From positions 1,184,001-1,248,000 of the forward strand of contig CBDEFM010000002.1 of assembly GCA_965237415.1 (NCBI GenBank): a stretch of 64,000 nucleotides of DNA, in the 5' to 3' direction. Below, piece by piece: positions 24,141 through 46,969 of this stretch. How positions within the stretch are numbered: position 1 is the first letter of the stretch; each line of letters opens with the position of its first letter. A model generated the notes under the pieces. That model did no database searches and had not been told where the DNA came from. It saw only the letters and a list, made by a program, of their open reading frames with translations. Both the position numbers and the translations under genes were made by a program. The DNA is from Alphaproteobacteria bacterium. GTDB taxonomy: Bacteria; Pseudomonadota; Alphaproteobacteria; UBA828.

Positions 24141-24527
24141 TCATGCGTTGCCTGCCAGCAGGTGGGCGTTGATCTGGTCGAGCTGCTTGTCGAGGCCGGC
24201 GATCATCTTGTCCGTGCCGTCGAGCGTCGCGCGGAGCGCCGCGATCTCCCCCTGCACCGCCGTGACCGAGCGGCCGAGGGCGGCGAACTCGCGGGCATCG
24301 GGGAGGGCTTCGAGCGCGGTGGAGAGCTTGACCAGGCCGCGCTCGACGGTCTCCATGCGCGCGCCCAAGGCGCCGACGCCGGTGTCGCGCTTCTCCAGGT
24401 CGCCCAGGCTCTTGCTGGCGACGGCGCCGGCGGATTCGAGCCGGCGCACCCGCACGAAGAGGCCGACGCAGGCGCCGACGACGGCACCCACCGCACCGCG
24501 CGCGACCCAGGTTTCGAGGTCGCTCAT
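24141..24527 (-). CDS. Mu gp25-like (DUF2730-like) membrane-anchored coiled-coil protein of the lysis operon
   Basis: N-terminal TM helix, then coiled coil with LEALPD..EF..L and a C-terminal I..HLL pattern; position after endolysin and holin. Confidence 0.6.
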   Translation of the reverse strand: MSDLETWVARGAVGAVVGACVGLFVRVRRLESAGAVASKSLGDLEKRDTGVGALGARMETVERGLVKLSTALEALPDAREFAALGRSVTAVQGEIAALRATLDGTDKMIAGLDKQLDQINAHLLAGNA

Positions 24528-25051
24528 CGGGCCGCTCCGCCCTCGCGCGGACGCCGCTTCTCGATCTGGCGGGAACCGAACCACCAGAGCATCGCGGCGG
24601 TGAAGAGATAGAGCACGGTCTCGACGATGCGGGGCCGGAGGCCCATGGCTGCGAGATCGGACGCGCCCAGCAGGAAGTAGATCGCGCCCACGAGGGCGAA
24701 GAGGCTCCAGGTGAGCAACGGCCGCGTGAGGCCCCGCACGGCGTCGACGAATTGCATGAGCCGGCCTTCGCCGGGGCGGGACCAGCGCCGGCTGGCCTCC
24801 CGGTACGAGGCTTCAAGCGCTTCCCACTCGGCCCGCTCCCGCGTGGCCTGGGCCTCGATGGCGGCGTGGGCCGCGGCGCCCTCGGCCTCGGCCTTCGCGA
24901 GCTCGATGTCGAGGCGGCGCAGGTCCAGCTCCTGGCTGTGCTGCTGGCGGGACTGGAAGAAGTCGACGACGGCCGAAAGCGCCGTGCCCAGCAGCCCGGT
25001 TGCGCCGCCGGTGAGCACCGAGGCGCCGAGATTGAAGAGGGTCTCAAGCAT
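24524..25051 (-). CDS. Putative holin (3TM holin-like)
   Basis: N-terminal amphipathic helix, VDAVRGLTRPLLT followed by two TM segments, and WWFGSR C-terminus typical of this holin class. Confidence 0.65.
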   Translation of the reverse strand: MLETLFNLGASVLTGGATGLLGTALSAVVDFFQSRQQHSQELDLRRLDIELAKAEAEGAAAHAAIEAQATRERAEWEALEASYREASRRWSRPGEGRLMQFVDAVRGLTRPLLTWSLFALVGAIYFLLGASDLAAMGLRPRIVETVLYLFTAAMLWWFGSRQIEKRRPREGGAAR

Positions 25052-25526
25052 TGTTCATCTCCCGCGCGCCTGCCGGCGCGACTATCTCCCGCGCGCCTGC
25101 CGGCGCGACCTCCAACACGAAGGGCCGGTCTGCGGCCCAGTCCATGAGATGGCGAAAGGCCGTGCGGGAGGCGAACACCGCCGCCTGGCGGCGCCCGCTC
25201 ACGGTCATCCGCCCCCGGCGGAGGCCCGGCAGCAGGCAGCCCGATGTGTGGGTATGCCAGCCGCGCTCCACGTCGCCGCCGAGGTTGCCGGCATGGAAGA
25301 GGATGTGGCTGCGGCCTTGCACCTGCGTCACCAGCAGGCAACGCCGGTGGCGCGGCGACAGGTGCGGCACCACCTCGTAGAGCCCGGCCGGGATGCAGGA
25401 GCGGTTGCGCCGGTTGCCGCGCCAGGGCGGCTCCATGATGCAGAGAGGCGGAAGGCCGGGGCCGCTCAGGACCCCCAGCGTGCCCTGCTCGCTCTCCTGC
25501 TCCCGCCTGAGGATCGCCCGCTGCAT
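25044..25526 (-). CDS. DUF5675-like putative phage endolysin (L,D-transpeptidase-like fold)
   Basis: GTLG, EPPW..N..N.SCIPAGLY, V.GRSHILFHAGN, T.GCLLPG motifs; 27-bp in-frame duplication (VAPAGARE x2) at the C-terminus. Confidence 0.75.
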   Translation of the reverse strand: MQRAILRREQESEQGTLGVLSGPGLPPLCIMEPPWRGNRRNRSCIPAGLYEVVPHLSPRHRRCLLVTQVQGRSHILFHAGNLGGDVERGWHTHTSGCLLPGLRRGRMTVSGRRQAAVFASRTAFRHLMDWAADRPFVLEVAPAGAREIVAPAGAREMNNA

Positions 25527-25576
25527 GGGACGATCATGGGCACGCGCGCCCGACCTGTGCACCGCACCATGGTCCG
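25527..25576 (-). promoter_or_regulatory. Putative activator-dependent late promoter, copy 1 (lysis cassette)
   Basis: CGGACCATGGTGCG (25576-25563) - 24 nt - CATGAT - 6 nt - ATG 25526. Confidence 0.75.
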
Positions 25577-25709
25577 GTGCTTTGCCGCTCACGGCAGCCG
25601 GCCTGCGGCCGGCGCCTCCGCGAGGGCGCCGCAGGAGCGGCGGGCCGCGGTCGCGGCCTATCGCGAGCCCGTCAAAGACGGACTCGCTCTAGCTAGGGTA
25701 GCACCGGCG

Positions 25710-26258
25710 TCAGTCGACGAGCCATTTGGTGCGCCAGAACGCGCGCATGTCGAGCGCCATACTGGGGCCGACGACATCGGGTGTGGCGCCGACCGCTGCT
25801 CGATGCTCCGGGCCTGCGGGGCGCGTATCGGCGCCTTCCCAGGGCAGCGGACCCTGCCAGACGATCTTGTCCCCGATCGCGTAGATGGCGCAGTCGGGCC
25901 GGGCGGCGGGATGAGCCTGCGCGATCCTCTCGCGGCAGCGCTCGAGCGCCGGATACCTGTAGTGGACATCCCTGATCGGACGGGCCGAGACATGGTCGAG
26001 GATATGGCAGCCGAGGGTGCCGCAGTAGACGTACCAGCCGCCCCGCCCGTTGCGGTCGAGAGCGAGCACGGCATAGCCGCTTCTCGCATGGCGCAGATAG
26101 TCGCCCCACCACGCCGTGAACCAGGCCGGCGCCTCCGCGTGCAGATCGTCGGCGGAGGCGGCGGTGGCCCGTATCCGCTGGCCTTCGATGTGGGTGGGCG
26201 CTGTGCACGCCGCGAGCAGGGCCGCCGCCAGGACGAGGATCAGCGCCGCGCGGGGCAT
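25710..26258 (-). CDS. Lipoprotein translationally coupled to the repressor gene
   Basis: Lipobox LLAAC; TGATG overlap with the repressor stop; Cys pattern AL..C...C.IYA.G..IVW. Confidence 0.65.
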   Translation of the reverse strand: MPRAALILVLAAALLAACTAPTHIEGQRIRATAASADDLHAEAPAWFTAWWGDYLRHARSGYAVLALDRNGRGGWYVYCGTLGCHILDHVSARPIRDVHYRYPALERCRERIAQAHPAARPDCAIYAIGDKIVWQGPLPWEGADTRPAGPEHRAAVGATPDVVGPSMALDMRAFWRTKWLVD

Positions 26259-27172
26259 CACTCGAAGGTCCGCGAGGCCCAGCGCACCTCGCCCACCACC
26301 TCCGCCTCTGGGGGCCAGGGCACCGGCTCCCAGGACGGGTGATCGCTGACGAGGAACCACTGCCGCCCGCGCCGCTCCAGGCGCTTCACAACCAAGCCCT
26401 CGTCCGTGGTGACCACGAAGATGCGGCCGGTGCGGCGGCGGGTGCGGGTACGGTCCACCAGAATCTTGGCGCCGGCAGGGAGCGTCGGCTCCATGGACTC
26501 GCCCCGCACCGAAATGACCACGCAGAGCGTCGGGTCGATGCCATGGCCGTCGAGCCAGTCGCGGCGGAACCAGACCGGCCCCTTGACCGGCGCCTCGTCG
26601 AGATTGACCGCGCCGCCGCCCGCCGCGGCTTCGATCTCGCGCGTCCCCACCGAGCGCGCGCCGGGGGTCACGCCATCCTCGTTGGCCGCCGCGACGGGCC
26701 TTGCGTCGGCGTTGGCAAAGCCCACCGCCGGCGCCGGCCGCAGCTCCCCCGGAATTGGATCGCCGCCGGCGTCCGCGACCAGCCGCACCAGCGTCTGCAC
26801 CGCGCCCTCGAGGCCCAACAGAGGCACCGCCTCGTAGGGCGCGGCCTGCGATGCGTCGTTCCAACCGGGCGCCGGCGGTTCCGACAAAGCCCCGCCTGCC
26901 GCAGCACGGGCCGCGCCATCCCCGTCGTCCTCACCGTCGGCACGCACGCCGGCGGACGGGCCGATCGAAAGCGTCAACCCGAGGGCGGCGCAGATCTCGG
27001 CCGCGCGGTCCACCGAGGGCGCCTGCTCTCGCGTGGGATCGAGAATCCCGCGCAGCGTCCAGGGCCTGAGCCCGTGGGCGGCTTCGAAGCGCCGCGCGCC
27101 CACGCCGGCCGCCGTCAGGGCCTCGCGCACGGCGCGGCGGATTTGCTCGCTGGGTCGAGTCGGACTCGGCAT
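26258..27172 (-). CDS. Phage CI-like repressor: N-terminal HTH plus C-terminal S24 peptidase
   Basis: APSVDRAAEICAALGL HTH segment; AAAGGG cleavage site; VRGESMEPT (Ser) and LVVKRL (Lys); VVGEV.W terminus. Confidence 0.88.
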   Translation of the reverse strand: MPSPTRPSEQIRRAVREALTAAGVGARRFEAAHGLRPWTLRGILDPTREQAPSVDRAAEICAALGLTLSIGPSAGVRADGEDDGDGAARAAAGGALSEPPAPGWNDASQAAPYEAVPLLGLEGAVQTLVRLVADAGGDPIPGELRPAPAVGFANADARPVAAANEDGVTPGARSVGTREIEAAAGGGAVNLDEAPVKGPVWFRRDWLDGHGIDPTLCVVISVRGESMEPTLPAGAKILVDRTRTRRRTGRIFVVTTDEGLVVKRLERRGRQWFLVSDHPSWEPVPWPPEAEVVGEVRWASRTFE

Positions 27173-27246
27173 GTGCACAATATAGCACATCCTTCTATGC
27201 ATGAAAGTGCTTGATTCTATCATGCTCGATCATGCATATATGTGTG
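27173..27246. promoter_or_regulatory. Divergent repressor/Cro switch region
   Basis: 74-bp AT-rich island; minus strand TGcTATATT extended -10 six nt before repressor ATG; plus strand TTGATT-18-CATATA six nt before ATG 27247; repeated ATGCAT/GTGCAC palindromes. Confidence 0.6.
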
Positions 27247-27552
27247 ATGGTGCACAGTGACCGGCTGCTCATCGCCCTGATCCGCTCATACGCGGCGGCG
27301 CGCGGCATCTCCGTCTCCTACGCCTCGCGCCTGCTCACCGGCAGCGGCGACACGGTGGATCGCGTCACCGCCGGCGCCAGCATCACCGCGCGCCGGGCCG
27401 AGACCATCCTGCGCCGCGCCTCGCAGCGCTGGCCCGACGGCCGCGCCTGGCCCACCGACATTCCGCGCCCGGCGCCTCAAGGGGAGTACGACCAAGGGGC
27501 AACGACGACGCCGAGCGTTCCCGAACCCGGCGACAAGAAACAAGAGACATGA
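27247..27552 (+). CDS. Cro/Ner-like small DNA-binding protein
   Basis: Divergent from repressor; Y..A.GIS.S..SR..G.G and WP....WP.DIPRP pattern seen in alphaproteobacterial phage Cro-like proteins. Confidence 0.7.
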   Translation: MVHSDRLLIALIRSYAAARGISVSYASRLLTGSGDTVDRVTAGASITARRAETILRRASQRWPDGRAWPTDIPRPAPQGEYDQGATTTPSVPEPGDKKQET

Positions 27553-27565
27553 AAGGGAGAAGCAG

Positions 27566-28108
27566 ATGACCGCACCTGCGGCGGCGCCAATTTCGATGGA
27601 GGACATCGTCGCCCTCGCGAGGGCCTTCGCGGCGGCGCGCGCGGCGACGGAGGCGCTGGCCGAGGACATCAAGGCGCTGCAGCGCAAGGCCTTGCGAAGC
27701 CGCCTTCGCGCGCTCCGCACCCGGATCGGCGAACAGGCGGCGTCGGAGGAGGCATTGCGTGCCGCGATCCTGGCCCGGCCCGACCTCTTCGTCAGACCGC
27801 GCACCGTCGCGGTGGACGGCATCAGGTTCGGGCTTCGCAAGCAGCCGGGCAGCGTTTCGGTGGGCGACGAGGCGCAGGCGATCAGTCGGCTGCGCGAGCT
27901 CTTCCCGAACCGGGCCGTGGGGCTGATCCGCGTCAAGGAATCCCTCGACCGTGCGGCGCTCCGCAAGTTTCCGGCGGCCGAGCTCGCGCAGATCGGCGTC
28001 ACCATGGAGAAGGCGACGGATGAGGTCGCCATCGCCGCTGCATCCGGCGATCTCGACCGGGTTGTCGCCGCCCTGCTCGACGACGCCGCACACATGGAAG
28101 CGGCATGA
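27566..28108 (+). CDS. Mu Gam-like host-nuclease inhibitor family protein
   Basis: N-terminal coiled coil, then LF..PRT..V.GI.FGLRK.PG, IRVKESLDR.AL, L..IGV. Confidence 0.7.
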   Translation: MTAPAAAPISMEDIVALARAFAAARAATEALAEDIKALQRKALRSRLRALRTRIGEQAASEEALRAAILARPDLFVRPRTVAVDGIRFGLRKQPGSVSVGDEAQAISRLRELFPNRAVGLIRVKESLDRAALRKFPAAELAQIGVTMEKATDEVAIAAASGDLDRVVAALLDDAAHMEAA

Positions 28109-28267
28109 GGGGCGGAAGAGTCGGCGGCGCGGAACACGTGGCGAGCCGGGCCGCGCGCGCCCGCGCCGAACGCCTGTGGCACGAAACTGTCGCGCGCCCA
28201 GGCGCGCCCGAGAGCAATGTTGCGCGGCCCTGCACGCCTGCGAACGATTTGAGCGCAGCGAGAAACC

Positions 28268-28310
28268 CCCACCTCACCCTGGCCCTCTCCTCCCCGCCGG
28301 GAGGAGAGGG
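28268..28310. repeat. REP-like palindrome (CCTCACCC...CCCTCTCC/GGAGAGGG type)
   Basis: Perfect 12-bp stem CCCTCTCCTCCC (28283-28294), loop CGCC, GGGAGGAGAGGG (28299-28310). Confidence 0.75.
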
Positions 28311-28407
28311 AGAAAAAGCTGTCACCGCCCACGTTCCCTCTCCGCCCCCCAGCGCCGCAAGGCGCGAGAGCCAAGTGAGCGGAGCGAACGCCCGGCGCCT
28401 GAGGGAG

Positions 28408-28941
28408 ATGGAAAGAGTGGCGGAAAGGGACAGGGAGAGGCGGGGGACGACAAACGACCCTCCCCTCCCCAACGACCCCGCGACGCGCAAGCTGCGGGCG
28501 CTCTGGATCAGCGCGTTTCACCTGGGCCTGACCCAGGACCGCTCGGACGGCGCGCTCGTAGCCTGGCTCCGCCGCCAGACGAACCTCGACTCCGACACCT
28601 GCCTGACCGCCGACGGTCTCGACCGCGCCGTTCAGCCGTTGGAGGCCTGGCTCGCGCGCGCCGCAGGCGTGGACTGGCGGCCGCACCTCTCCCTCGACCG
28701 GAGCGGGCGGGTGCGGGAGACCCGCCGCCCCCGAGCGCGGGTGTTGGAGGCCCAATGGCGCCTGCTCCACCGCCAGGGGCGGGTGCGGATTGGGAGCCAC
28801 GCGGCGCTTGGCGCCTACGCCGCCCGCTTCGCCGGCCTCGGCCGCGCCGACTGCCACCTCGCGCTCAGCGACGCCCAGTCCGACGCCCTGATCCGCCACC
28901 TCGGCAAATGCATCCGCGCGGCAGGCAAGGGCCATGGCTGA
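28408..28941 (+). CDS. Mu GemA/gp16-like regulatory protein (C-terminal half of the family)
   Basis: RKLRALW...LG..DRSD.AL.AW.RRQT...L.AWLAR motif; GAGGGAG RBS before ATG 28408 (ORF is open from 28105). Confidence 0.65.
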   Translation: MERVAERDRERRGTTNDPPLPNDPATRKLRALWISAFHLGLTQDRSDGALVAWLRRQTNLDSDTCLTADGLDRAVQPLEAWLARAAGVDWRPHLSLDRSGRVRETRRPRARVLEAQWRLLHRQGRVRIGSHAALGAYAARFAGLGRADCHLALSDAQSDALIRHLGKCIRAAGKGHG

Positions 28942-29281
28942 TGTCGCGCCCCTCCCCGGCGTGCTGGAGGAGATCGCGGACATCGCGGGCCGGCCGACCG
29001 CGATCGCGATCGCGCTCGCCTGGGGCGGTCGCGAGGTCCACATCCCGAAGCCGCTTCATCTGGCGCGCCACCCCGACCACCCCCTCGCCCGCCTGCTGGA
29101 GGCCGAGGGAACGGCGCTCAAGGTCTCGGACTACCTCGGCGGAAGCTGCATCTACCTGCCGCGGGCCCGACGCGCCTGCGCCCTTCACCTCGCCGCCGCC
29201 GGCGCGACGCCCGCCGAGGTCGCCGCGCGCCTCGGGCTCTCCCCCAGCGCCGCCAGGCGATACATCAGGGGAGCGCCTTAG
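28934..29281 (+). CDS. Mor/C-like transcriptional activator
   Basis: LPGVL.EIA..AG...A..IA..WGG.EVHIPK, GG..IYLP and a C-terminal HTH (EVAARLGLS..AARRY); follows gemA as in Mu-like phages. Confidence 0.75.
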   Translation: MADVAPLPGVLEEIADIAGRPTAIAIALAWGGREVHIPKPLHLARHPDHPLARLLEAEGTALKVSDYLGGSCIYLPRARRACALHLAAAGATPAEVAARLGLSPSAARRYIRGAP

Positions 29282-29538
29282 GGACGCCCGGTGCGACGGG
29301 AACACAAGCAAGCGGCGGGACAAGCGCCGGGCGCATGAGTGATATGCTTTGGGGGCGGACTGTCCGGCGTTGCACGGCCGCCGTGCCATGACCACATCAC
29401 GGGTGGCGGCGCCCGGCCCGCATCCCCGCGAGGGAGGGGCCGCGCCGCCGCAGATTCAACAGAGGGCCACGCGCGGACGATCGGTCCATCGAGCGGCAGC
29501 CACCGGAGCCCGGTTAGAATAGGAAAGGGTACGTCGTC

Positions 29539-30033
29539 ATGCCCCAGTCATTGCACCCCACGAAGATCGACATTGCCGACAACACACGCGCCGCGATGGT
29601 CGAGCTGCTCAACGCGCGCCTCGCCGACGCGGTGGACCTCGCGACCCAGATGAAGCAGGCCCACTGGAACGTGAAGGGCCCCTCCTTCATCGCCCTGCAC
29701 GAGCTCTTCGACGCCATCCACGTGGCCGTTCAGGGCCACGTCGACAACCTGGCGGAGCGCATCACGGTGCTGGGCGGCACCGCGCGCGGCACGGCTCAGG
29801 TCGCAGCGGCGGACTCGGGCCTCCCCGCCTATCCGCTGGAAATCACAGCGGGCGCCGATCATGTGGAGGCGGTGAGCATCGCGCTCGCCGCCTTCGGCAA
29901 GGGCATCCGCGCCGCCATTGCCGAGGCCGGCGAAGCCGGCGATGCCGACACCGAAGACCTCTTCGTCGAGGTCTCGCGCGACATCGACAAGAACCTCTGG
30001 CTGGTCGAGGCCCACGCGCAGTCGCAGCGCTAG
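29539..30033 (+). CDS. dps: DNA starvation/stationary phase protection protein Dps
   Basis: KQAHWNVKGPSFIALHELFD, D.LAERI..LGG, DK.LW.VEAH. Confidence 0.95.
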   Translation: MPQSLHPTKIDIADNTRAAMVELLNARLADAVDLATQMKQAHWNVKGPSFIALHELFDAIHVAVQGHVDNLAERITVLGGTARGTAQVAAADSGLPAYPLEITAGADHVEAVSIALAAFGKGIRAAIAEAGEAGDADTEDLFVEVSRDIDKNLWLVEAHAQSQR

Positions 30034-30044
30034 ACAGAGTTGCT

Positions 30045-30074
30045 CCAGGGCGCTCGTGGCGAAGAGCGCCCTGG
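30045..30074 (+). terminator. Hairpin downstream of dps
   Basis: CCAGGGCGCTC-8 nt-GAGCGCCCTGG 11-bp stem; no clear U-tract. Confidence 0.45.
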
Positions 30075-30287
30075 GCGGCGCGGTAAAAGTTACAAAAAGG
30101 GTGGCGGGTGCCTACAAAACGAAGCCAATTTCGCGTAGCACCATGATTAACGAACATAAAATATAGATTTTCGCTCGAAGCCCTCCCCCATCGGGACGCC
30201 GTGCCGGCGGCAAAGACCGGTTGACTCGTCGGCGCCCGATGCGTCAGGGTTTTACCCATAGTGAAATGCGGGGGCGCCTCTCGGGGG

Positions 30288-30953: not shown

Positions 30954-30954
30954 C

Positions 30955-32547: not shown

Positions 32548-32596
32548 ACTTCCCACGGCGGGGCGGGCGTTCTCACTGCCTGCCCCGCCCCGCTGC

Positions 32597-32642: not shown

Positions 32643-32651
32643 AGGCGGGCC

Positions 32652-38349: not shown

Positions 38350-38368
38350 ACGAGACGGCGGCAGCACC

Positions 38369-40066: not shown

Positions 40067-40872
40067 AAGCCAACGCCCCCCTCAAGCTGATGTATCTCAA
40101 CCCGGTCGGCACCGAGGCCTACGACGCCGTCTTCGCCGACATGGCACGCACCTACAAGCTGCCGGGCACGGAGGTCCACATCGCCTGCCTGGCGGACGCG
40201 GGCGGTAGCTTCACCCACATCGAGTACCGCTCCTACGAGACCATCGTCTCGCGCGGCATTATCAGGGCGACACGCCAGGCCGCGCGCGAGGGCTTCGACG
40301 CGCTCGCCATCGGCTGCTTCTACGACACGGCGCTGCACGATGCCCGCGAGATCTCGGGCGAGATGGTCGTGACCGCGCCCTGCCTTGCTTCGTGCGAAAT
40401 CGCGGCGAGCCTCGCCAACCGCTTCGGCATCATCGTGGGGCGGCGCAAGTGGGTGAACCAGATGAACGCCGTCGCCCGCGAGCACGGCTACGGCGAGCGC
40501 CTCAGCGGCTTCTATCAGGTCGAGCTCGGCGTCAACGACTTCCAGACCGATCACGCGGAGACCGAGCGGCGGCTGGTCGCGGCCGGGAAGCGCGCGGTCG
40601 AAGAGGACTACGCCGAAGCGCTGATCCTCGGATGCACGCTGGAGATCGGCTTCTACCGCGAGATCGAGAAGGCCGTCGGCGTGCCGGTGATCGACCCCTC
40701 CATCGCAGCGCTCAAGCGCGCCGAGTATGCCGCGCAGCTCAAGCGCCAGTGCGGCTGGGTGCCGAGCCGCATGTGGTCCTGCGAGCCGCCGCCCGAGGAG
40801 GAGATCGCGCGCTTCGGCGGCTTCGATGAAGGCGAGGCCTTCGGCCAGCGCCTGGTCGTCGAGGCGGAGTGA
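40063..40872 (+). CDS. Asp/Glu/hydantoin racemase family protein
   Basis: LNPV, IGCFYD and ILGCT catalytic cysteines, VPVIDP. Confidence 0.9.
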   Translation: MKANAPLKLMYLNPVGTEAYDAVFADMARTYKLPGTEVHIACLADAGGSFTHIEYRSYETIVSRGIIRATRQAAREGFDALAIGCFYDTALHDAREISGEMVVTAPCLASCEIAASLANRFGIIVGRRKWVNQMNAVAREHGYGERLSGFYQVELGVNDFQTDHAETERRLVAAGKRAVEEDYAEALILGCTLEIGFYREIEKAVGVPVIDPSIAALKRAEYAAQLKRQCGWVPSRMWSCEPPPEEEIARFGGFDEGEAFGQRLVVEAE

Positions 40873-40897
40873 CGGCGCTCGGCCCTCGCCGGTCTGC

Positions 40898-41071
40898 TTA
40901 GTCCGCCCCGTCTGCCACGGGATCGAAATCGGCCTTGGGCGCGCGGCAGTCGGGACAGCACCAGTCGTCCGGCAGATCCTCGAAGGCTGTGCCGGGCGGT
41001 GTGTCGCGCTGCGCCTCGCCCTTGGCAGGGTCGTAGACGTAGCCGCACCAGCGACACCGATAGCGCGTCAT
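40898..41071 (-). CDS. Rubredoxin
   Basis: [11 protein letters not shown]...[15 protein letters not shown]. Confidence 0.92.
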
Positions 41072-41135
41072 GGCGACCGTCGCCGACAAATGACGGCGTG
41101 CGACCGGCGCAACCGGCCGCGCGCCGTTACCTCAA

Positions 41136-42305
41136 TCAGTGAATGCCGAGCTTCTCGGCAGCCATCTGCGTTCCCTTGATGCGGGACTCGATCTTCTGAA
41201 ACGCCACGTCGCGGGCGTAGTCCGGCGAGCCGTGGTTGGGCTTCACGTCGATGCTGAAGGGCGAGAAGCCGCAATCGTCGGTTGAGGCGATCTGCTCCTT
41301 CGGCAGGTGATTGGCGGCCGCGACGAGCTGATCGCACACTTCCTCGGGCGATTCGACCCGCGGGTTCTGCGGGTTGACGACGCCGATAAAGGCCATCTGC
41401 GTGACGCCGTTCGCGTCGGTTCGGATGCTGGCCGCGATGTCCTTGTAGACCTGCTCCTGGTTCCGCTCGCTCTTGAACTGGATCATGAAGTAGCCGGCAT
41501 TCAACTGGAACATGCTCGGCAGCAGGTCGTTGTAGGGCACATCGGCGCTGTGCACGGAATCGCAGTCGCCGCCGGGGCAGGTGTGGATGCCGATGTTCAC
41601 CCGCTCCTCCGCCGTGAAGCGGTCGAGCACCCCGTTGATGAGATCGATGAAGTGGGGAAGCATCTCGCGGCCGGTCCAGGGGTTGCGCGAATCGTTGCGG
41701 CAGGAGAGCCGGCCTTCGGTGAAGTCGATCGAGACCCTGACGGCGCCGGCAGCGAAGGCGGCGCGCACGTCCTTCTCGCACTCGTCGATCAGGTCGGCCT
41801 CGAACGTCGCGCGAGAGTAGCCCTCGATCTCCTCATCGAGCGGATAGAGCAGCGCCAGCATCGAGGGCGCGATGACCGCCTGCTTCATCGGCTTGGTCGC
41901 AGACTTGATCGAGAGCTTCAGCGAATCCGCGGCGAAGCTCTTGTAGCGGAAGGGGCCGCCGGTGAGCAGCGGCAACTGGCGATTGTGGCCGTCGGCGAAG
42001 ATGGCGAAATACTGGCCGCCGCCCCCCAGATGGTCGGCAAGGCCCGTCCCCGCCAGCGTGTCGGTGATCGGATAGGTCGCGAAGCTCGACCAGCGTTGCT
42101 CGCCGTCGGAGACGATGGGCGAGCCGGTCGCCTCCATGCGCGCGATCGAATCGCGCACGGCTTCCTCCTGCTCCGCCTCCAGGTCGGCCTTCGAAATCTC
42201 GCCCGCGTCGTAGGCGGCATACGCGGCCTGGAGCTTGGAGGGCCGGGGCAGCGAACCCACGGGTTCTGTCGGAATTCCGGTGGCAGCGCGCGGATCGTAG
42301 GTCAT
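41136..42305 (-). CDS. Cobalamin-independent methionine synthase II family protein (core MetE C-terminal domain only)
   Basis: TEPVGSLPRP, SDGEQR, HTC and DDCGFS zinc ligands; GGAGA RBS. Confidence 0.85.
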   Translation of the reverse strand: MTYDPRAATGIPTEPVGSLPRPSKLQAAYAAYDAGEISKADLEAEQEEAVRDSIARMEATGSPIVSDGEQRWSSFATYPITDTLAGTGLADHLGGGGQYFAIFADGHNRQLPLLTGGPFRYKSFAADSLKLSIKSATKPMKQAVIAPSMLALLYPLDEEIEGYSRATFEADLIDECEKDVRAAFAAGAVRVSIDFTEGRLSCRNDSRNPWTGREMLPHFIDLINGVLDRFTAEERVNIGIHTCPGGDCDSVHSADVPYNDLLPSMFQLNAGYFMIQFKSERNQEQVYKDIAASIRTDANGVTQMAFIGVVNPQNPRVESPEEVCDQLVAAANHLPKEQIASTDDCGFSPFSIDVKPNHGSPDYARDVAFQKIESRIKGTQMAAEKLGIH

Positions 42306-42414
42306 CGGTGGTCTCCCTGTATCTGGCGATGTGTTCCGGCATGGTCCCATATCAGCGGCGCGACACAAAATACGGTGCTGGTGCGACGCGGCCGACGTCC
42401 CCATCTGCGTGCCC

Positions 42415-42464
42415 CGCACCTTGGTGCGATGGGCAGCGCTGCCGGCTGTCGTCATGGTACGGGC
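42415..42464 (+). promoter_or_regulatory. Putative activator-dependent late promoter, copy 2 (terminase)
   Basis: CGCACCTTGGTGCG (42415-42428) - 24 nt - CATGGT - 6 nt - ATG 42465. Confidence 0.75.
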
Positions 42465-43862
42465 ATGGCCGGCCCCGACTCTGACGACCGAGAGACCATG
42501 AATTGGGAGCGAGCGCGCCCTACCCTCCTCCCCTACCAGGCCCGCTGGTTGGCGGACGGTGCCGGCCTCAAGGTGATCGAGAAGGCGCGGCGCGTGGGCA
42601 TCTCCTGGGCGGAAGCCTACGACGCGGTGATGCACGCGGGCGCCGCCGGCAGCGGCAACGTCTACTACCAGGCCTACAACTGGGAGATGACCCGGGGCTT
42701 CATCGCGGATTGCGCCGACTGGGCGCGGACGCTGCAGTTGGTGGCCGGCTCTCTCGGCGAAACTCTGATCGACGAAGGCCAGCGCATCCAGGCCTTTCGC
42801 ATCGCCTTCGCCTCGGGCCGCGAGATCGTCGCCATGACCTCGGCACCCCGCGCCTTCCGCTCCAAGGGCAGGCCCGGCGACCTCGCCATCATCGACGAGG
42901 CGGCCTTCGTCGACGATCTCGGTCAGGTGCTCAAGGCAGCGATGGCCTTCCGCGTCTGGGGCGGGCGGGCGCACGTCATCAGCACCCACAACGGCGAGGC
43001 CAATCCCTTCGCCGCGCTCTGCCGCGACCTGCGCGAGGGCGCGCGGCCCGGCTCTTTGCATCGCATCACGCTGGAGGAGGCACTGGCGGAGGGACTCTTC
43101 CGCAAGATCGCTGCGGCCCAGGGCCGGCCCTGGTCGGCGGAGACCGAGGCCGCCTGGGAAGCCGAAATCAGGGCGGAGTACGGTACTTATGCGTCAGAAG
43201 AGCTCGACTGCATCCCCGCTGCCGGCGGCGGCGCCTGGCTCGGCTGGGAAGCGATCCGCACCTGCGAAGACCGCGCCGCCGGCGATCCCGCCGCCTTCGC
43301 CGGCGGTTCCACCACTATCGGCGTGGACGTGGCGAGGCGCCGCGATCTCTGGGTCGCCGCGGTGCTGGAGCAGGTGGGCGACGTGCTCTGGCTGCGCGAA
43401 CTGGTGGTGCGACAGGGCATCCCCTTCAGCGCGCAGCGGGCGATTGTGGGTGACTTGGCCGCGCGCTATCGGCCCACCCGCATCGCCGTGGACCAGACCG
43501 GCATGGGCGAGGCCGTGGTGGAGCAGCTGCAGGAGGACCTGGGCCGGACCACCGTCGAGGGCGTGTTGATGACCGGGCCGCGCCGGCTCGATGCGGCGAC
43601 GGCGCTGCGGGAAGCGGTGGAGGACCGCCGCCTCCGCATTCCGCCCGACGGCGATCTGAGGCGCGACCTCCACGCCGTCCGCGCCGAGGCCGGGCCGACC
43701 GGGGCGCCGCGCCTCATGGCGGAGCGCTCGGGCACCGACGGCCACGCCGACCGCTTCTGGGCTCTGGCGCTCGCCTGCACCGCCGCCCGCACCGCGGCCA
43801 CCGCGACCATCGAGGGCGCTACCGCCGGCCCCCGCGCCGCCACCCTCGCGGGCTTCTATTGA
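42465..43862 (+). CDS. Mu gp28-like terminase large subunit
   Basis: LLPYQ..W, EKARRVGISW (Walker A variant), IIDEAAF (Walker B), ISTHNG..NPF, GVDVAR.RDL and GHADRFWA nuclease acidic residues. Confidence 0.9.
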   Translation: MAGPDSDDRETMNWERARPTLLPYQARWLADGAGLKVIEKARRVGISWAEAYDAVMHAGAAGSGNVYYQAYNWEMTRGFIADCADWARTLQLVAGSLGETLIDEGQRIQAFRIAFASGREIVAMTSAPRAFRSKGRPGDLAIIDEAAFVDDLGQVLKAAMAFRVWGGRAHVISTHNGEANPFAALCRDLREGARPGSLHRITLEEALAEGLFRKIAAAQGRPWSAETEAAWEAEIRAEYGTYASEELDCIPAAGGGAWLGWEAIRTCEDRAAGDPAAFAGGSTTIGVDVARRRDLWVAAVLEQVGDVLWLRELVVRQGIPFSAQRAIVGDLAARYRPTRIAVDQTGMGEAVVEQLQEDLGRTTVEGVLMTGPRRLDAATALREAVEDRRLRIPPDGDLRRDLHAVRAEAGPTGAPRLMAERSGTDGHADRFWALALACTAARTAATATIEGATAGPRAATLAGFY

Positions 43863-44082
43863 GGGGCGCGCGTCGCGCCCTCTCCGCCCTCGGGCTGCCG
43901 TGGCACGTCATCGGAAATTCTCATTGCCGGCCCAACAAAACGATACTTGTCCCAATACCGCGGCGTTCACATCTCTTGATTGTAGGCCCCACCCGCTGCG
44001 GTGCTGGCTCTGACTGACCCGCCTCACCCGCCGCGCGGCAGGGCTCGAAAGCGAGGATCGCGAAGCGAAGAGGATGCGAGCC

Positions 44083-45426
44083 ATGGCAGACGAGAACGAC
44101 GACACACGCAGAGGCAAGAACGACAGCGAAGCGCAAGAAGGGGATCCGCTTGGGCTGTACGTCGGCAGCCAGGCCGGCGAAACGTTTGACGGCGGCGACG
44201 TCTTCGCTGTCTACGACCTCGCCGGGGGAGCCGACAGGGCGAACTATCGAGGCGGCGACAACGCCTTCCTCCTGGGCGGAAGCGGCGACGACTTCTTGAT
44301 GAGCAACGGCGACGATTTCATCATGGGTGGCAGCGGCGACGACACGATCAATGCCATGGGACGCGAAAGCGTCGTCCGCGGCGGCAGCGGCGACGACACC
44401 ATCCTCGGCACACTCGGAAACGACTGGCTGATCGGCGACGCCGGCGACGACACCATCGACAGCTCCGGCGGAAACGATTTCATCGCCGGCGGCGATGGCG
44501 ACGACCTTCTGTACGGCCGCGGCGGGAACGACTGGGTCATCGGTGGAGCCGGGGACGATCGCATGTCGGGCGGCGACGGCCGCGATATCTTCCATTTCCA
44601 TGCCGACAACGGCCACGACACGATCTTCGACTTCCGCGGCAGCGAGGACATCATCGACCTGACCGGATTCGAGGTGCGGATCACTTGGACGGAGTTGAGC
44701 GCGCGGTTCGCAATCGCGGACAACGGCCGGGACGCGGTAATTGACCTCAGTGGATGGGGCGGCGGAACGATCACGTTGCGCAACGTCAGGCCGGCATACC
44801 TCAGCGAAGACATGTTCTACCTGCCCGATCCCCAGTCCCCCTTGGAGGGCGGGGACGAAGAAGAGGGCTTCTACGTTCCCGGCACCGCCACCTTTGTCGG
44901 TCACCCCGGCGCCGATGCCCTGGTCGCAGACGGACGCGCCGACTTCATCTTCGGCGGCGAGGGCGACGACAGGCTCGACGGTGGCGGCGGCGAGGACTGG
45001 ATCCTCGGCGGCGAAGGCAACGATACGCTCGACGGCAACACTGGCAACGACCGCCTGTTCGGCGGCGAAGGGCGCGACACGCTGGACGGCGGGGAAGGCA
45101 GCGACTGGCTCAGCGGCGGCACCGGCACCGATACGCTGACGGGTGGCACCGGGGCCGACACCTTCGCCTATTTCGCCGGCCATGGAAGCGACACGATCAC
45201 CGACTTCACCGACGGCGAAGACGTGATCGACCTGAGTTCGCTCGACTCCATCTCGGGCTTCGATGACCTGAGCGCGATCCAGCTCGGCTCGTTCGTTGCG
45301 ATCGACCTGGGCGGCCACGGCGGAGGCACCATCGCGCTCGAGAATTTCGATATCGAAGTCCTGGACGAGACGGATTTCGTGTTCTACCAGCCTCCCGTTG
45401 CCGATCCCGCACAGGACGGCATGTAG
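44083..45426 (+). CDS. RTX/hemolysin-type calcium-binding repeat protein
   Basis: Two blocks of GGxGxD nonapeptide repeats, each followed by G.DTI.DF...ED.IDL. Confidence 0.9.
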   Translation: MADENDDTRRGKNDSEAQEGDPLGLYVGSQAGETFDGGDVFAVYDLAGGADRANYRGGDNAFLLGGSGDDFLMSNGDDFIMGGSGDDTINAMGRESVVRGGSGDDTILGTLGNDWLIGDAGDDTIDSSGGNDFIAGGDGDDLLYGRGGNDWVIGGAGDDRMSGGDGRDIFHFHADNGHDTIFDFRGSEDIIDLTGFEVRITWTELSARFAIADNGRDAVIDLSGWGGGTITLRNVRPAYLSEDMFYLPDPQSPLEGGDEEEGFYVPGTATFVGHPGADALVADGRADFIFGGEGDDRLDGGGGEDWILGGEGNDTLDGNTGNDRLFGGEGRDTLDGGEGSDWLSGGTGTDTLTGGTGADTFAYFAGHGSDTITDFTDGEDVIDLSSLDSISGFDDLSAIQLGSFVAIDLGGHGGGTIALENFDIEVLDETDFVFYQPPVADPAQDGM

Positions 45427-45537
45427 CCGGTAGGCGCGGGCTACTTAGGCCCGCGCGACTCTACATTCCGCGCACACGACCCGGTGGGCGTGCGCGCCTG
45501 TCTTACCGCGCGCGGGACCTTTCAGGCCCGCGCGACC

Positions 45538-45587
45538 CGCACCATGGTGCGGTGCACAGGGCGCGCCAGGTCCGCGATGATCGGGCC
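45538..45587 (+). promoter_or_regulatory. Putative activator-dependent late promoter, copy 3 (portal)
   Basis: Perfect palindrome CGCACCATGGTGCG (45538-45551) - 24 nt - GATGAT - 6 nt - ATG 45588; shares 20 identical nt (ACCATGGTGCGGTGCACAGG) with copy 1. Confidence 0.8.
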
Positions 45588-45640
45588 ATGTTGAACGCCC
45601 GATCCTCCGCTTCTCTCCCGACAGCCGGGAGCCACCCCTG

Positions 45641-46969
45641 ATGGCGGCGACCGGTCTGGCCGGGCGGCTCCGTCGGCTGCTCCCGCCCTCCCGCGCGCGC
45701 GTGCCGGCGGGGCCGCCCTTGGGCGAGGTCGCCGCTGCCAGCATCGCGGGGCGCCTCCAGCCCTATATCGGCGAGCTTCCGCTCAACCCGCGCCAGCCTT
45801 CGCGTTACGCCGATCGCTACCGCGACGAGGGCCACGCGCTCCAAATCTATCGCGACATCCTGCGGGACGAGCGCTGCCAGGCGGCCCTTGACCAGCGCCT
45901 CGACGCCGCCATAGCGCGGCCCTGGACGGTCGAGCCCGGCGGAGATACGCCGGAAGACCGCGCCGCGGCGGACGATCTCGCCCGCCAGCTCGCAGGCGTG
46001 GGCTTCGACGCCGTCAGCCGCCAGCTCCTGCACGGGGTCTGGTACGGCTACGCCATCGCCGAGGCGCTCTGGGCCCGCGAGGCAGACCGTGTCGTGCTCG
46101 ACCGCCTCGTGGTGCGCGCGCCGGACCGCTTCCGCTGGTCGGCGGAGGGCGCGCCGCTGCTCCGCACCGAGACCCAGCCCCTCGGCGCGCCGCTGCCAGG
46201 CGGAAAATTCGTCGTCCTCCGCCGCCCCGGCGAGCACGGCGACCTGCCGCACGGGCCGGGCCTCGCGCGCTGGTGCTTCTGGCCGGTCTGGCTCAAGCGC
46301 CACGGGCTCAAGTTCTGGTCAGTCGCGCTCGAAAAGTTCGGCGCCCCCGGCGTCAAAGGCACGTATCCGAGGAACGCGAGCGCCGAGCAGAAGGCCGACC
46401 TGCTGGATCTGGTCCAGTCCTTCGCCACAAACCTCGGCGTCATCCTGCCCGAGGGGCAGGAGATCGAGATCGTCGAGAGTGCGCGCCGCGCCGGCGGGGA
46501 TTTTCTGGCCTTCGTCGCCTATCTCGACCGCGCCATATCGACGACGATCCTCGGGCAGTCCGCCACCACCGACATGGGGCCCTGGCGCGGCACCGCCGAG
46601 GTGCAGCGCGACGTGCGCGACGAGACCGTCGCCGCCGACTGCCGCCTGCTCGATAACGCGCTGAACGGCACAATCGCCCGTTGGCTTACCCAGTGGAATT
46701 TCCCGAGCGCGGCGACGCCCCGCATCCGCCGCGACGCATCGCCGCCCGAGGACCTCGACGCCCGCGCCCGCCGCGAGGCCGTCATCGCCAGCACCAGCGG
46801 CCTGCGCCCGACCCGCGCTGGCGGATGGTATGCACATCGAGCGCACCTACGGCGGGGATTGCCCCGTACCTTGGGAGGAAGCGGCGGGAGGGCCTGCACC
46901 GGTATAGAGCTGCTGGCGGATGGTATGCTTAAAGGGTCGTGGGACTCGGCTGGCCTAGTCTGGGCTTGA
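45641..46969 (+). CDS. Mu gp29-like portal protein (DUF935); extreme C-terminus frameshifted
   Basis: Y.DILRD, R..A..A.PW.VEPGG, GYAIAE..W, GL...CFWPV.LKR.G.KFW...LEKFG.P, ILGQ..TT, VQ.DVR. Confidence 0.88.
   Translation: MAATGLAGRLRRLLPPSRARVPAGPPLGEVAAASIAGRLQPYIGELPLNPRQPSRYADRYRDEGHALQIYRDILRDERCQAALDQRLDAAIARPWTVEPGGDTPEDRAAADDLARQLAGVGFDAVSRQLLHGVWYGYAIAEALWAREADRVVLDRLVVRAPDRFRWSAEGAPLLRTETQPLGAPLPGGKFVVLRRPGEHGDLPHGPGLARWCFWPVWLKRHGLKFWSVALEKFGAPGVKGTYPRNASAEQKADLLDLVQSFATNLGVILPEGQEIEIVESARRAGGDFLAFVAYLDRAISTTILGQSATTDMGPWRGTAEVQRDVRDETVAADCRLLDNALNGTIARWLTQWNFPSAATPRIRRDASPPEDLDARARREAVIASTSGLRPTRAGGWYAHRAHLRRGLPRTLGGSGGRACTGIELLADGMLKGSWDSAGLVWA

Follow-up and report, generated by a model that had tools for sequence, protein, structure and literature searches.

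The stretch of DNA analysed here (64,000 nucleotides, the window) contains three modules of a Mu-like prophage, namely an early operon with a lysis cassette (contig C2, 1.208-1.213 Mb), a large terminase (terL) module (1.226 Mb) and a portal module (1.230 Mb). The interleaving of Mu-like early, lysis, terminase and portal genes with host genes, described in the initial annotation, was confirmed by Pfam and PHROG matches; the intervening host genes encode a Dps-like ferritin, an HTH-cupin regulator, a Dpp-type ABC transporter, hydantoinase A/B and a racemase, in addition to three that are included below. The GC content is 72% at 24-30 kb of the window versus about 65% in the flanks, so that the base composition, previously called host-like, is only roughly so. 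The features are as follows:

24141..24584, minus strand: DUF2730-like membrane/coiled-coil protein, last gene of the lysis cassette (PF10805, E 5.7e-4, below cut-off; phrog_736, E 9e-7)
24524..25051, minus strand: holin-like membrane protein (phrog_6637, E 7.5e-23; phrog_3427, holin, E 3.7e-5)
25044..25526, minus strand: DUF5675 protein, putative endolysin, first gene of the cassette (PF18925, E 1.5e-22); ATG 36 nt past the motif
25563..25576, minus strand: putative Mor-box palindrome of the lysis promoter, CGGACCATGGTGCG on the minus strand
25710..26258, minus strand: lipoprotein without assigned role; ATG overlaps the repressor stop codon
26258..27223, minus strand: S24/CI/LexA-type repressor with an S24 self-cleaving peptidase domain (PF00717, E 1e-16; phrog_4, transcriptional repressor, E 3.5e-25)
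27211..27552, plus strand: ner/cro-like gene, first of the early operon (phrog_7669, E 2.1e-17, function unknown)
27566..28108, plus strand: Gam-like DNA-end protection protein (phrog_491, E 8.8e-11; PF07352, 26 bits, below the cut-off of 28.3)
28105..28941, plus strand: GemA (PF06252, E 2.6e-19)
28934..29281, plus strand: Mor/C-family late activator (PF08765, 26.5 bits, cut-off 24.9; phrog_836, late transcriptional activator, E 1.2e-13)
40898-41089, minus strand: rubredoxin (host)
Between the phage pieces, minus strand: MetE-like gene (host)
42415..42428, plus strand: putative Mor-box palindrome of the terL promoter, conserved before terL in relatives
42465..43862, plus strand: large terminase TerL (Terminase_6C, E 2.2e-19; phrog_2, E 3.5e-29); ATG 36 nt past the motif
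44074-45426: RTX-repeat protein (host)
45538..45551, plus strand: putative Mor-box palindrome of the portal promoter
45588..45641, plus strand: 17-codon mini-ORF read from the sequence, starting at the ATG 36 nt past the motif; its TGA overlaps the portal ATG
45641..46969, plus strand: Mu-type portal (Portal_Mu, PF06074, E 7.1e-87)

In the early region, direct reading of the repressor revealed GESMEP and VVKRL, and its dN/dS is 0.26. The lipoprotein gene, which adjoins the repressor gene in the loci of 10 relatives and has a dN/dS of 0.59, begins with a sequence that resembles a signal peptide and lipobox, and Pfam and PHROG family searches returned no match for it. The annotated cro/ner gene retains its position as the first early gene, transcribed away from the repressor in every relative examined, and is named for this position, the sole family match being phrog_7669. 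A Mor match was found in 15 of 20 other genomes of the genus, with orthologues of 77-97% identity in 14. The clean absence of the transposase genes A/B proved correct: only 13 nt separate the end of ner from the start of gam, where the intact relative L013 carries the Mu transposase, and a genome-wide search for DDE_2 returned no match in this genome. The ner-gam adjacency is common to 10 relatives (in G041, gam holds a 4.4-kb insertion), and DDE_2 matches occur in only 3 of the 20 genus genomes. The loss of the transposase genes probably predates the diversification of the genus, and the prophage would since have been unable to move or replicate as a unit.

The lysis genes had been placed after mor; they in fact lie to the left of the repressor on the minus strand. 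The order of motif, N36, ATG and DUF5675 gene is also found in the intact prophage L039 and in eight relatives; the holin-like gene has a dN/dS of 0.26 (n = 2), and orthologues of the DUF2730-like protein are 82-97% identical in the cassette-bearing loci of nine relatives. Of the catalytic motifs that had been judged intact, the Walker-type ATPase and nuclease motifs of TerL are conserved and align with those of intact phages, to most of which TerL is 65-73% identical, with a final segment of about 25 amino acids that is unlike the phage versions. The portal lacks the C-terminal 90 or so amino acids of phage portals, and in this genome its gene is in addition frameshifted after amino acid 393 (a private lesion). 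The portal gene is present as a single copy, and its product is 38-40% identical to portals of B3-type phages and 55-62% identical to those of the uncultured prophages L012-L021.

The palindrome CG[C/G]ACC[A/T]TGGTGCG stands before each of the late pieces, 36 nt ahead of an ATG. The window contains three sites (25563, 42415 and 45538), i.e., six matches when both strands are counted, compared with 0.08 expected from shuffled sequences, none of 100 shuffles reaching six. The annotated promoter with a constant spacing thus holds for all three late pieces, with the qualification that the ATG before the portal opens the mini-ORF, the length and N-terminus (MMNARSSASLP) of which are kept in most of the portal loci listed for 14 relatives. 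A promoter-like unit is observed before every late module. Its conservation between species covers the palindrome (centre 43-44 nt ahead of the ATG), a GTGCAC block, a -10-like hexamer (positions -12 to -7) and the ATG itself, with drift in the bases that separate them. The intact phages L013 and L039 have the identical palindrome-N36-ATG arrangement ahead of their first late gene. Among 35 more distant loci, which are mostly contiguous Mu-like prophages from other taxa, a search allowing at most one mismatch found exactly one copy in 15, located 1.2-2.5 kb upstream of terL and ahead of the lysis/late genes, and none in 20; a motif directly before terL or portal, which had been named as an observation that would speak against a host-retained regulon, was found in 0 of the 35.

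The prediction that head and tail genes lie outside the window was borne out: a protease gene, a capsid gene and a full siphovirus tail module are located at about 1.12-1.13 Mb behind the identical motif, with a second, duplicated copy at the contig start. In this assembly, the junction of the head and tail modules falls on an apparent inverted duplication of 25.8 kb at the end of a contig, so that the assembly is doubtful there. The protease gene follows the motif in this genome and in nine relatives, with a spacing of N37 to a mini-ORF, and a contiguous cluster of motif, protease, capsid, adaptor and tail genes is present in eight relatives, in five of them behind the same host genes. The tape-measure gene is short (272 aa). 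Copies of the small terminase gene (TerS, gp27) are scattered round the chromosome and evolve almost neutrally (omega 0.3-1.0), the HTH region being disrupted in 6 of 10, and a Mu F-like head gene is missing throughout the genus.

Far from being strain-specific, Mu-derived parts are present in 15-18 of the 20 other species of the genus, at shared chromosomal sites and with a shared ner-gam junction. The capsid gene was found in 16 of these species (92-98% identity) and in 0 of 23 genomes from other genera of the family, and portal orthologues in 15 of 20 genus genomes (84-96% identity). The order MetE-like (minus), terL, portal, PYC (minus) is found in nine species, the layout of lysis cassette, repressor, ner-gam-gemA-mor and dps in eight of nine early-region loci compared, and the terL tree is congruent with the tree of the host PYC gene, all of which agrees with vertical inheritance, a point that the initial annotation had suggested checking. 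Purifying selection is seen on terL, on the portal and capsid genes and on the main tail genes: the median dN/dS values are 0.11 for capsid and tail terminator, 0.15 for portal (n = 11), 0.17 for the major tail gene and 0.24 for terL (n = 8), with 0.23 for Mor, compared with 0.08-0.23 for host genes. The phage genes have diverged together with the host genes, their synonymous divergence (dS 0.36-0.65) matching that of the host (0.29-0.54). Weaker constraint applies to the protease (0.35) and to DUF1833, t183 and the lipoprotein (0.5-0.6). No stop codons occur in 11 portal, 9 capsid, 8 terL and 8 major-tail pairwise comparisons, whereas neutral simulations yielded 5-8 stops per gene, and zero stops in at most 4 of 1000 runs.

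The genes in the window point to an old Mu-like prophage which has lost its transposase, has been split into separately promoted modules and descends from a Mu-like siphovirus of the B3/D3112 type. The remnant appears to be vertically inherited, under selection and putatively controlled by Mor, and particle production from this regulon is plausible at the level of the genus. In the genome analysed here the system is probably impaired, because a gp36-type head-tail adaptor was not found by tblastn of the genome (E<=1e-3), the gpG/Neck1-like gene is reduced to amino acids 73-162 and the portal end is frameshifted. In a functional system, a DNA-damage-type signal would lead to cleavage of the S24 repressor and hence to transcription of ner-gam-gemA-mor. 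A Mor dimer might then bind the palindrome, the centre of which would have the same position relative to the transcription start as that of Mu Mor and C, and mostly leaderless late transcripts would switch on the lysis, packaging, head and tail modules together. Since there is no phage genome large enough for a headful, the heads would be filled with host DNA, and lysis of the cell would follow.

Not all observations fit such a system, and slow decay of a grounded prophage that has no particle function, with only some genes co-opted (e.g., the repressor for immunity, or lysis and tail parts), is an unlikely explanation, albeit one to be taken seriously. The remaining genes would then persist through linkage, the short time elapsed, or because truncated products are toxic and weakly selected against. 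In line with decay, essential structural genes carry private lesions in at least seven species, namely this genome and six relatives: G043 has a broken protease and a deletion that reaches into the capsid start; in G040 about 5 kb splits terL; in G041 about 4.4 kb interrupts gam, and about as much the tail terminator; in G038 the portal is degraded with an internal stop, the protease is split, and gemA and three tail genes are missing; and in G032 and G026 the Mu parts are largely eroded. G035 is an eighth species, with an in-frame stop in the tail gene t183. Pseudogenes in relatives, which the initial annotation had held to count against its own reading, exist in several species. The whole genus has lost the F-like head protein as well as the C-termini of portal and TerL, several tail-tip genes have dN/dS values of 0.5-0.6, and the capsid gene is absent from four genus genomes that are complete or nearly so, three of the genus lacking everything. 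Nevertheless, decay alone would not be expected to leave capsid, portal, tail terminator, major tail and terL in the dN/dS range of neighbouring housekeeping genes (0.11-0.24, at a dS of 0.36-0.62), without a stop in any of the 36 comparisons, nor to leave a footprint of conservation in the promoter elements or all functional classes for a DNA-filled tailed particle instead of one co-opted gene.

The promoter itself has a second possible origin. An nhmmer search places the unit in a dispersed repeat family of 77 sites, of which 65 have ATCCCACTTA-type iterons within 1.5 kb downstream and ten carry gp27, so that the promoters before terL and portal could stem from repeat insertion rather than from selection, and the regulon would be accidental. 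Copy numbers and iteron variants vary by species, a 371-bp unit present in this genome and in G043 has an empty site in G035, G037, G040 and G041, and the left, hairpin-bearing part of the promoter-(gp27)-iteron units is similar to the sequence that precedes the portal motif. The argument of the initial annotation that passive decay could not supply each fragment with a spaced promoter is weakened by this family, at least one unit of which is insertion-polymorphic. As an account of the shared promoter, chance landing of the repeat is nevertheless improbable: in every relative examined, the motif sites of lysis, terL, portal and protease occupy orthologous positions and keep their spacing to the ATG, and therefore predate the species-specific bursts; the lysis promoter is native to intact phages; and the terL promoter is not recognized by the repeat-family model. 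A 19-mer motif has 4-42 copies in 17 of the 20 other genus genomes (0 matches for the reversed pattern), but is absent from three that also lack gp27, capsid and Mor (two have no portal, and G039 has a 41% fragment), which ties the repeats to the element, not the reverse. Very improbable, and already largely refuted, is an assembly artefact, or a still functional transposable phage with its missing genes elsewhere or in trans. The genome is a two-contig MAG with 6.35% estimated contamination, the contig ends are inverted duplicates of internal sequence, and three genus genomes carry a Mu-type transposase elsewhere; however, independent assemblies, including closed single-contig chromosomes, show the identical dispersed layout and ner-gam junction, this genome lacks DDE_2 matches, and the modules are up to about 100 kb to more than 1 Mb apart, which exceeds any headful.

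Taken as a whole, the data are explained best, with somewhat better than even confidence, by an ancient transposase-less Mu-like prophage that is vertically kept as a GTA-like or PBSX-like particle system at the level of the genus. The proposed GTA-like regulon is thus supported in part: most of the checks suggested with it turned out in its favour, and the species lesions, the missing adaptor and truncated gpG-like gene of this genome, and the repeat-family promoter speak against it. Because the Mu pieces have been inherited and largely kept intact across the genus, the element is a candidate gene-transfer-agent-like system of a new type, in which the host would retain the genes for a phage particle, although the copy in this genome looks partly damaged.

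GTAs of the Rhodobacter capsulatus type (RcGTA) in Alphaproteobacteria are encoded by phage-derived genes at several chromosomal loci, are vertically inherited under purifying selection, and are controlled by host CtrA/GafA-type regulators. As far as its genes reveal, the present element likewise has chromosomally kept head, tail, packaging and lysis genes at several loci, inherited vertically under purifying selection, a full gene set that could not be packaged, and a short tape-measure gene. It differs from RcGTA in its Mu-like transposable ancestor, its putative control by its own repressor and a Mor activator with a dedicated promoter box, the lesions in several lineages and its putative particle function; the GTA_TIM and HK97 capsid families were searched for in this genome and are absent, i.e., there is no homology to RcGTA. 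PBSX of Bacillus subtilis is a conserved defective prophage with its own DNA-damage-inducible repressor, which forms lytic particles that package host DNA and does not propagate itself; it is one contiguous cluster from another phage lineage, in Firmicutes. The element would resemble PBSX as a conserved defective prophage with its own repressor, putatively inducible by DNA damage and putatively forming lytic particles with host DNA, but has dispersed modules, each with its own putatively activator-dependent promoter.

With Mu-like siphoviruses (B3/D3112/JBD of Pseudomonas and the RcapMu type of Alphaproteobacteria) it shares the order within modules and the families of repressor/ner, Gam, GemA, Mor, lysis proteins, gp27, TerL, Portal_Mu, protease, capsid, gp36, gpG-like protein and siphovirus tail, and with 15 Mu-like prophages the late promoter box. 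It differs in lacking the A/B transposase, a contiguous genome or ends and an F-like gene, in its truncated portal and TerL ends, in the extra promoters directly before terL and portal, and in its fixed chromosomal positions common to species. According to two accounts of Mu (PMC4390567; PMC2582627), Mor and C bind 16-bp dyads with their centre at -43.5, and the late promoters have a -10 but no -35; here, the centre would likewise be at -43.5 if transcription starts at the ATG, and a -10-like hexamer is present without a TTGACA-like -35. In contrast to Mu, the box is of the CGGACCATGGTCCG type, the transcripts would be leaderless or begin with a mini-ORF, and a single activator gene is seen rather than a cascade of Mor and then C.

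The phage genes of the window belong to a transposase-less, dispersed and vertically inherited derivative of a Mu-like phage. The genome under study (4.75 Mb in two contigs, C1 and C2; 96% complete, 6.35% contamination) carries them among ordinary host genes, and their order was read from family scans.

Phage genes and adjoining host genes (window positions, strand, identity)
24141-24584, minus, DUF2730-like protein (family scan)
24524-25051, minus, holin-like protein (family scan)
25044-25526, minus, DUF5675 protein (family scan)
25710-26258, minus, lipoprotein, its ATG overlapping the stop codon of the repressor gene
26258-27223, minus, S24/CI-type repressor (Peptidase_S24, E 1e-16)
27211-27552, plus, ner-like gene, divergent from the repressor gene
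27566-28108, plus, Gam (family scan)
28105-28941, plus, GemA (family scan)
28934-29281, plus, Mor (PF08765 above its cut-off; phrog_836)
40898-41089, minus, rubredoxin, host gene
between rubredoxin and TerL, minus, MetE-like gene, host gene
42465-43862, plus, TerL (family scan)
44074-45426, RTX-repeat protein (HemolysinCabind), between terL and portal
45641-46969, plus, Mu portal (family scan)
48027-51479, minus, pyruvate carboxylase, host gene

From Mor to TerL the host genes encode, in order, a Dps-like ferritin, an HTH-cupin regulator, a five-gene Dpp-type ABC transporter, hydantoinase A/B, a racemase, rubredoxin and the MetE-like protein. The GC content is about 72% across 24-30 kb versus about 65% alongside. 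Only 13 nt separate the end of ner (27552) from the start of gam (27566), the very interval that is occupied by a Mu transposase (Mu-transpos_C plus rve) in the intact related prophage L013, and the Mu-type DDE domain (PF02914) has no match anywhere in the genome. The Peptidase_S24 match identifies the repressor as of the self-cleaving LexA/CI type, a feature of PBSX-like elements, and direct reading of its sequence reveals a GESMEP motif (Ser) and a VVKRL motif (Lys), which we take to be the catalytic motifs of S24 self-cleavage. The element likewise encodes its own activator of the Mor/C family. A search of PDB sequences returned no Mor match for Mor and nothing useful for the DUF5675 protein.

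Several further observations concern the surroundings of these genes. The Dps-like ferritin gene (29539-30033) lies 3' of mor in every relative examined, including the reshuffled genomes G036, G024 and G026; it could be a phage moron of long standing, or it could share a transcript with the early operon. A further, divergent pair of hydantoinase A/B-like genes adjoins the lysis cassette on its left (19486-23363, minus strand) and is 26-36% identical to the pair at 36274-40066. At the site matching window positions 19352-19482, where this genome has 131 bp, G043, the closest relative, carries a 1.7-kb insertion (L092:912-2590) that consists of two promoter-repeat units around low-GC cargo reading like a small toxin-antitoxin-type pair. 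The RTX gene separates terL and portal in this genome and in the relatives' loci L001 and L018, and precedes portal in the short contig L006; since terL and portal adjoin in the other relatives, it is a later insertion into the remnant. When two metatranscriptome runs and two other runs (all as contigs) were compared with window positions 28000-47999, an RNA-library contig was found to cover 41142-42695, from the MetE-like gene into the start of terL, and word depth was low over terL and portal; these are assembled contigs, which give no reading on expression.

The initial annotation had predicted that head and tail genes would lie outside the window. They were indeed found elsewhere in the genome, with proteins of related prophage loci as queries followed by family scans, and the protease gene stands behind the same box that precedes the late modules of the window.

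Head and tail modules outside the window (contig positions; query search and family scans)
C2:24639-25982, head protease
C2:26352-27326, major capsid protein
C2:1133169 down to 1120973, minus, tail module

The tail module comprises, in order, a truncated second protease copy, the tail terminator, the major tail protein, an assembly chaperone, a 272-aa tape-measure protein, two small virion proteins, a DUF1833 minor tail protein, the tail gene t183, a J-like central fibre of about 1250 aa (0 stops when checked with an in-frame query) and a collar fibre. Altogether, the modules occupy C2 at 1.208-1.213, 1.226, 1.230, 1.121-1.133 and 0.025-0.029 Mb. TerL retains its ATPase and nuclease motifs, portal is a single-copy gene, and gp27, of the TerS family, is present in ten copies. 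Weak matches to other phage proteins at C2:1677856-1682787 and near 1.677-1.690 Mb, among them a gpG-like virion morphogenesis protein (C2:1682455-1682787, 38-47% identity), point to a further prophage remnant some 450 kb away from the window. Matches at C2 889-897 kb to the flanks of the prophage L014 turned out to be housekeeping genes (aroA, rpsA, trpA/B and others) and not phage genes.

The element is old and widespread in the genus. The capsid gene is present in 16 of the 20 other species at 92-98% identity and in none of the family's other genera sampled (23 genomes); portal orthologues occur in 15 of the 20 (84-96% identity over amino acids 1-393), Mor matches in 15 and gp27 in 17. A 19-mer of the promoter is found in 17 of the 20 genomes in 4-42 copies (0 for a reversed-pattern control). 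Three complete genomes (G033, G039 and G042) lack the promoter 19-mer, gp27, capsid and Mor altogether; two of them have no portal, and G039 has only a 41% fragment. A Mu-type transposase is present anywhere in the genome in only 3 of the 20. Gene order is shared as well. Nine species share the order MetE-like (minus), terL, portal, pyruvate carboxylase (minus), and eight of the nine early-region loci fetched for comparison have the layout lysis cassette, lipoprotein-repressor, ner-gam-gemA-mor, dps; in G036 and G024 the ner-gam junction and the mor-dps adjacency are kept and the module order is different. Eight relatives have a contiguous head-tail cluster (motif, protease, capsid, the 330-aa protein X330, a gp36-type adaptor, a gpG/Neck1-like protein, tail terminator, rest of the tail), which in five of them lies behind the same four host genes. 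The terL tree equals the pyruvate carboxylase tree for the shared taxa, and the portal tree is only partly resolved.

Selection was assessed by pairwise Nei-Gojobori dN/dS between this genome and its relatives, based on tblastn alignments from which only HSPs covering 70% or more of the query were kept. The early genes have only n = 1-2 in this comparison, the additional early-region loci lying outside that run.

Median dN/dS by gene
capsid, 0.11 (n = 9)
tail terminator, 0.11 (n = 8)
portal, 0.15 (n = 11)
major tail protein, 0.17 (n = 8)
Mor, 0.23 (n = 2)
terL, 0.24 (n = 8)
repressor, 0.26 (n = 2)
Gam, 0.31 (n = 2)
protease, 0.35 (n = 6)
DUF1833, t183 and lipoprotein, 0.5-0.6 (n = 5, 6 and 2)
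neighbouring host genes, 0.08-0.23

Purifying selection acts on the genes for packaging, head, main tail, lysis and regulation. The dS values of phage genes (0.36-0.65) and host genes (0.29-0.54) have similar ranges, and therefore both have diverged for the same time. Neutral simulation at the observed dS produced 5-8 stop codons per gene, with at most 4 of 1000 runs free of stops, and no stop was found in 36 comparisons of portal, capsid, terL and major tail genes. Synteny, dN/dS, dS, the neutral simulation and the agreement of the terL and pyruvate carboxylase trees all document vertical inheritance combined with purifying selection, as would be expected of a gene transfer agent (GTA).

Losses and lesions argue against a working system. 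Throughout the genus the portal is shorter at its C-terminus than phage portals by ~90 aa, and TerL by ~25 aa, and a Mu F-like gene, which phage queries did not find in the genome under study, is counted among the genus-wide losses. Further lesions are scattered among the species: the protease is broken and a deletion runs into the capsid start (G043), terL is split by ~5 kb (G040), gam and the tail terminator are each split by ~4.4 kb (G041), DUF1833 is shortened (G036), and t183 contains an in-frame stop (G035). In G038 the portal is degraded, gemA is gone, the protease is split and three tail genes are gone, and in G032 and G026 the element is largely eroded. The loci compared for G037, G034 and G025, which cover part of the gene set, showed no lesion. 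Apparent stops in ner (G043), DUF2730 (G040) and DUF5675 (G037), as well as in protease, Neck1, X330 and adaptor, proved to fall within non-coding extensions of the queries or at the natural ends of genes and were discounted.

The genome under study has lesions of its own. Its portal gene is frameshifted after amino acid 393, its head and tail modules lie apart, and it lacks about 740 bp that in relatives code for the greater part of the gp36-type adaptor and for residues 1-72 of the gpG-like protein. The complete, uninterrupted structural gene set expected of a GTA is hence absent from this genome (adaptor, gpG-like protein, portal end), and its own copy of the system is probably impaired. 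The tail module abuts a second copy of the promoter and the first 385 codons of protease, which form the end of a 25.8-kb inverted duplication of 99.96% identity whose other copy is the start of contig C2 (C2:1-25793 versus C2:1132014-1157806); the copy at the contig start ends inside the phage protease gene. Likewise, the last 5 kb of C1 equal C2:2224311-2229310 inverted, and its first 5 kb equal C1:268345-273345 inverted. These contig-end copies may be genuine large inverted repeats at which the assembly broke; alternatively, they are structural variants or artefacts.

Each late module has a conserved promoter-like unit built around a palindromic box. Three window sites match CGCACCWTGGTGCG with at most one mismatch, that is, 6 matches over both strands versus 0.08 expected from shuffled sequences, and the exact sequence occurs 10 times in the genome, where base composition predicts about 0.12 occurrences. 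At both DUF5675 and terL the end of the motif lies 36 nt before the ATG. At portal it lies 36 nt ahead of the ATG of a 17-codon mini-ORF, the TGA of which overlaps the portal ATG, and at protease it lies 37 nt ahead of a mini-ORF. Four elements are conserved across species, namely the palindrome, a following GTGCAC block, a hexamer and the ATG, and the 12-14 nt between them vary. The hexamer (CATGAT, GATGAT, CATGGT or CAGGAT) is located at -12 to -7 of the ATG and GTGCAC in the -35 region, a placement read from the sequence. At all four modules (lysis, terL, portal and protease) the palindrome is centred 43-44 nt before the ATG, and this distance is kept across species; if the transcription start is taken at the ATG, the centre would be at -43.5. 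In Mu, the Mor site of Pm and the C site of the late promoters are centred at -43.5, the late promoters having a -10 and no -35 element (PMC4390567; PMC2582627). We infer that this motif serves as a Mor box and that late transcription would be leaderless.

Together with portal, 35 more distant loci were retrieved, for the most part contiguous Mu-like prophages of other taxa. The box (CGGACCATGGTCCG) occurs once in 15 of them, in all cases 1.2-2.5 kb upstream of terL; with up to one mismatch allowed, the other 20 have no copy. In the intact prophages L013 and L039 the first late gene has its ATG 36 nt behind the box, and gp26, gp27 and terL then run without a promoter of their own. Because the box is found at the first late gene of those prophages, it is native to this phage group, and the copies directly before terL and portal are derived features of the genus. 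In several other metagenome-assembled genomes an intact Mu-like prophage is repeated, with 3 to 8 copies of the same element per genome (L024-L031, from one Rhodobacteraceae genome; L014-L016; L012/L013/L036), as expected of actively transposing phages; the genus studied here, by contrast, has one fixed copy.

The promoter unit is not confined to the phage modules. A profile of it detects 77 sites in the genome, and at 65 of these an array of 10-bp iterons (ATCCCACTTA) follows within 1.5 kb on the same strand, so that a repeat unit comprises a Mor-box promoter, an ATG, an optional gp27 gene or remnant and an iteron array (e.g., C2:1398606-1399310, C2:436749-437119 and C2:1079237-1079400). Most units are geneless and 110-430 bp long. 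Ten contain gp27, in two subfamilies, four copies looking intact and six having a disrupted HTH region; omega among the copies is 0.3-1.0. Eight promoter-like sites without iterons were inspected for further phage genes downstream, and none was seen. Species differ in copy number and in the favoured iteron variant, and one unit of 371 bp, shared by this genome and G043, occupies a site that is empty in four other species; therefore, the family has spread since speciation. This polymorphic insertion gave rise to the idea that the units are MITEs bounded by terminal inverted repeats with TA duplication, which was dropped: the putative end sequence (147 genome copies) flanks 23 of the 77 units on the right and 2 on the left. 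This second short repeat ends in GGCGAGAAATCCGGGCTA (e.g., C2:437100-437119) and shows no consistent pairing with the units. Hairpin repeats of the type GCGCGGGACCTTTCAGGCCCGCGC recur ahead of some units, including the portal promoter. The initial annotation had argued that passive decay would leave no precisely spaced promoter ahead of each fragment. The 77-site family weakens the case for selection from a shared promoter; what speaks for it is the location of the four module promoters at orthologous sites in every relative examined.

How the element might act can be outlined from its genes. Cleavage of the repressor would induce it, Mor would then drive leaderless late transcription, and particles would assemble that could be filled only with host DNA. 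As is typical of GTAs, packaging, head, tail and lysis genes reside in the chromosome without a means of self-propagation. A more far-reaching reading is that of an independent Mu-derived GTA family in which one Mor-type activator fires leaderless promoters at the dispersed lysis, terminase, portal and head-tail modules, and in which about 60-70 units of promoter, TerS (gp27) gene or remnant and ATCCCACTTA array serve as distributed pac-like packaging-initiation sites. If this were true, headful packaging would start all round the chromosome, and the species-specific iteron variants would represent co-evolution with TerS. The 60 arrays on C2 exhibit no even spacing of the kind expected of designed pac sites (coefficient of variation of the gaps 1.07 versus 0.98 for random positions) and no strand bias. 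We regard this reading as improbable.

To our knowledge, the few known GTA lineages include none described as descended from a transposable phage. No description of a Mu-derived GTA was found in the open-access literature. The genomic case is that of a Mu-like phage that lost its mobility together with A/B, came apart into modules and yet stayed under selection while a genus radiated. Its control logic is unusually readable (one activator, one 14-bp box, a fixed spacing to a putatively leaderless start), and both the promoter box and the 77-site repeat family lend themselves to direct tests. Because lesions are scattered among the species, domestication and loss can be seen side by side, and the genus offers a natural experiment on the question of whether elements of this kind are kept for the benefit of the host.

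With regard to known systems, the Mu-type families Gam, GemA, Mor, gp27 and Portal_Mu are present in this genome, and gp36 in relatives only. In an intact Mu-like transposable prophage, ner and gam flank a DDE transposase A (and B) and the genome is one contiguous piece of about headful size, whereas here the transposase is missing and the modules are dispersed. The RcGTA family is characterised by an HK97 capsid and the GTA_TIM host-specificity protein, whereas neither PF05065 nor PF13547 has a match in this genome (the Caulobacter control was positive). GTA and PBSX-like particles operate by induction and filling with host DNA, and the present element is a candidate, as yet unproven, member of this functional class.
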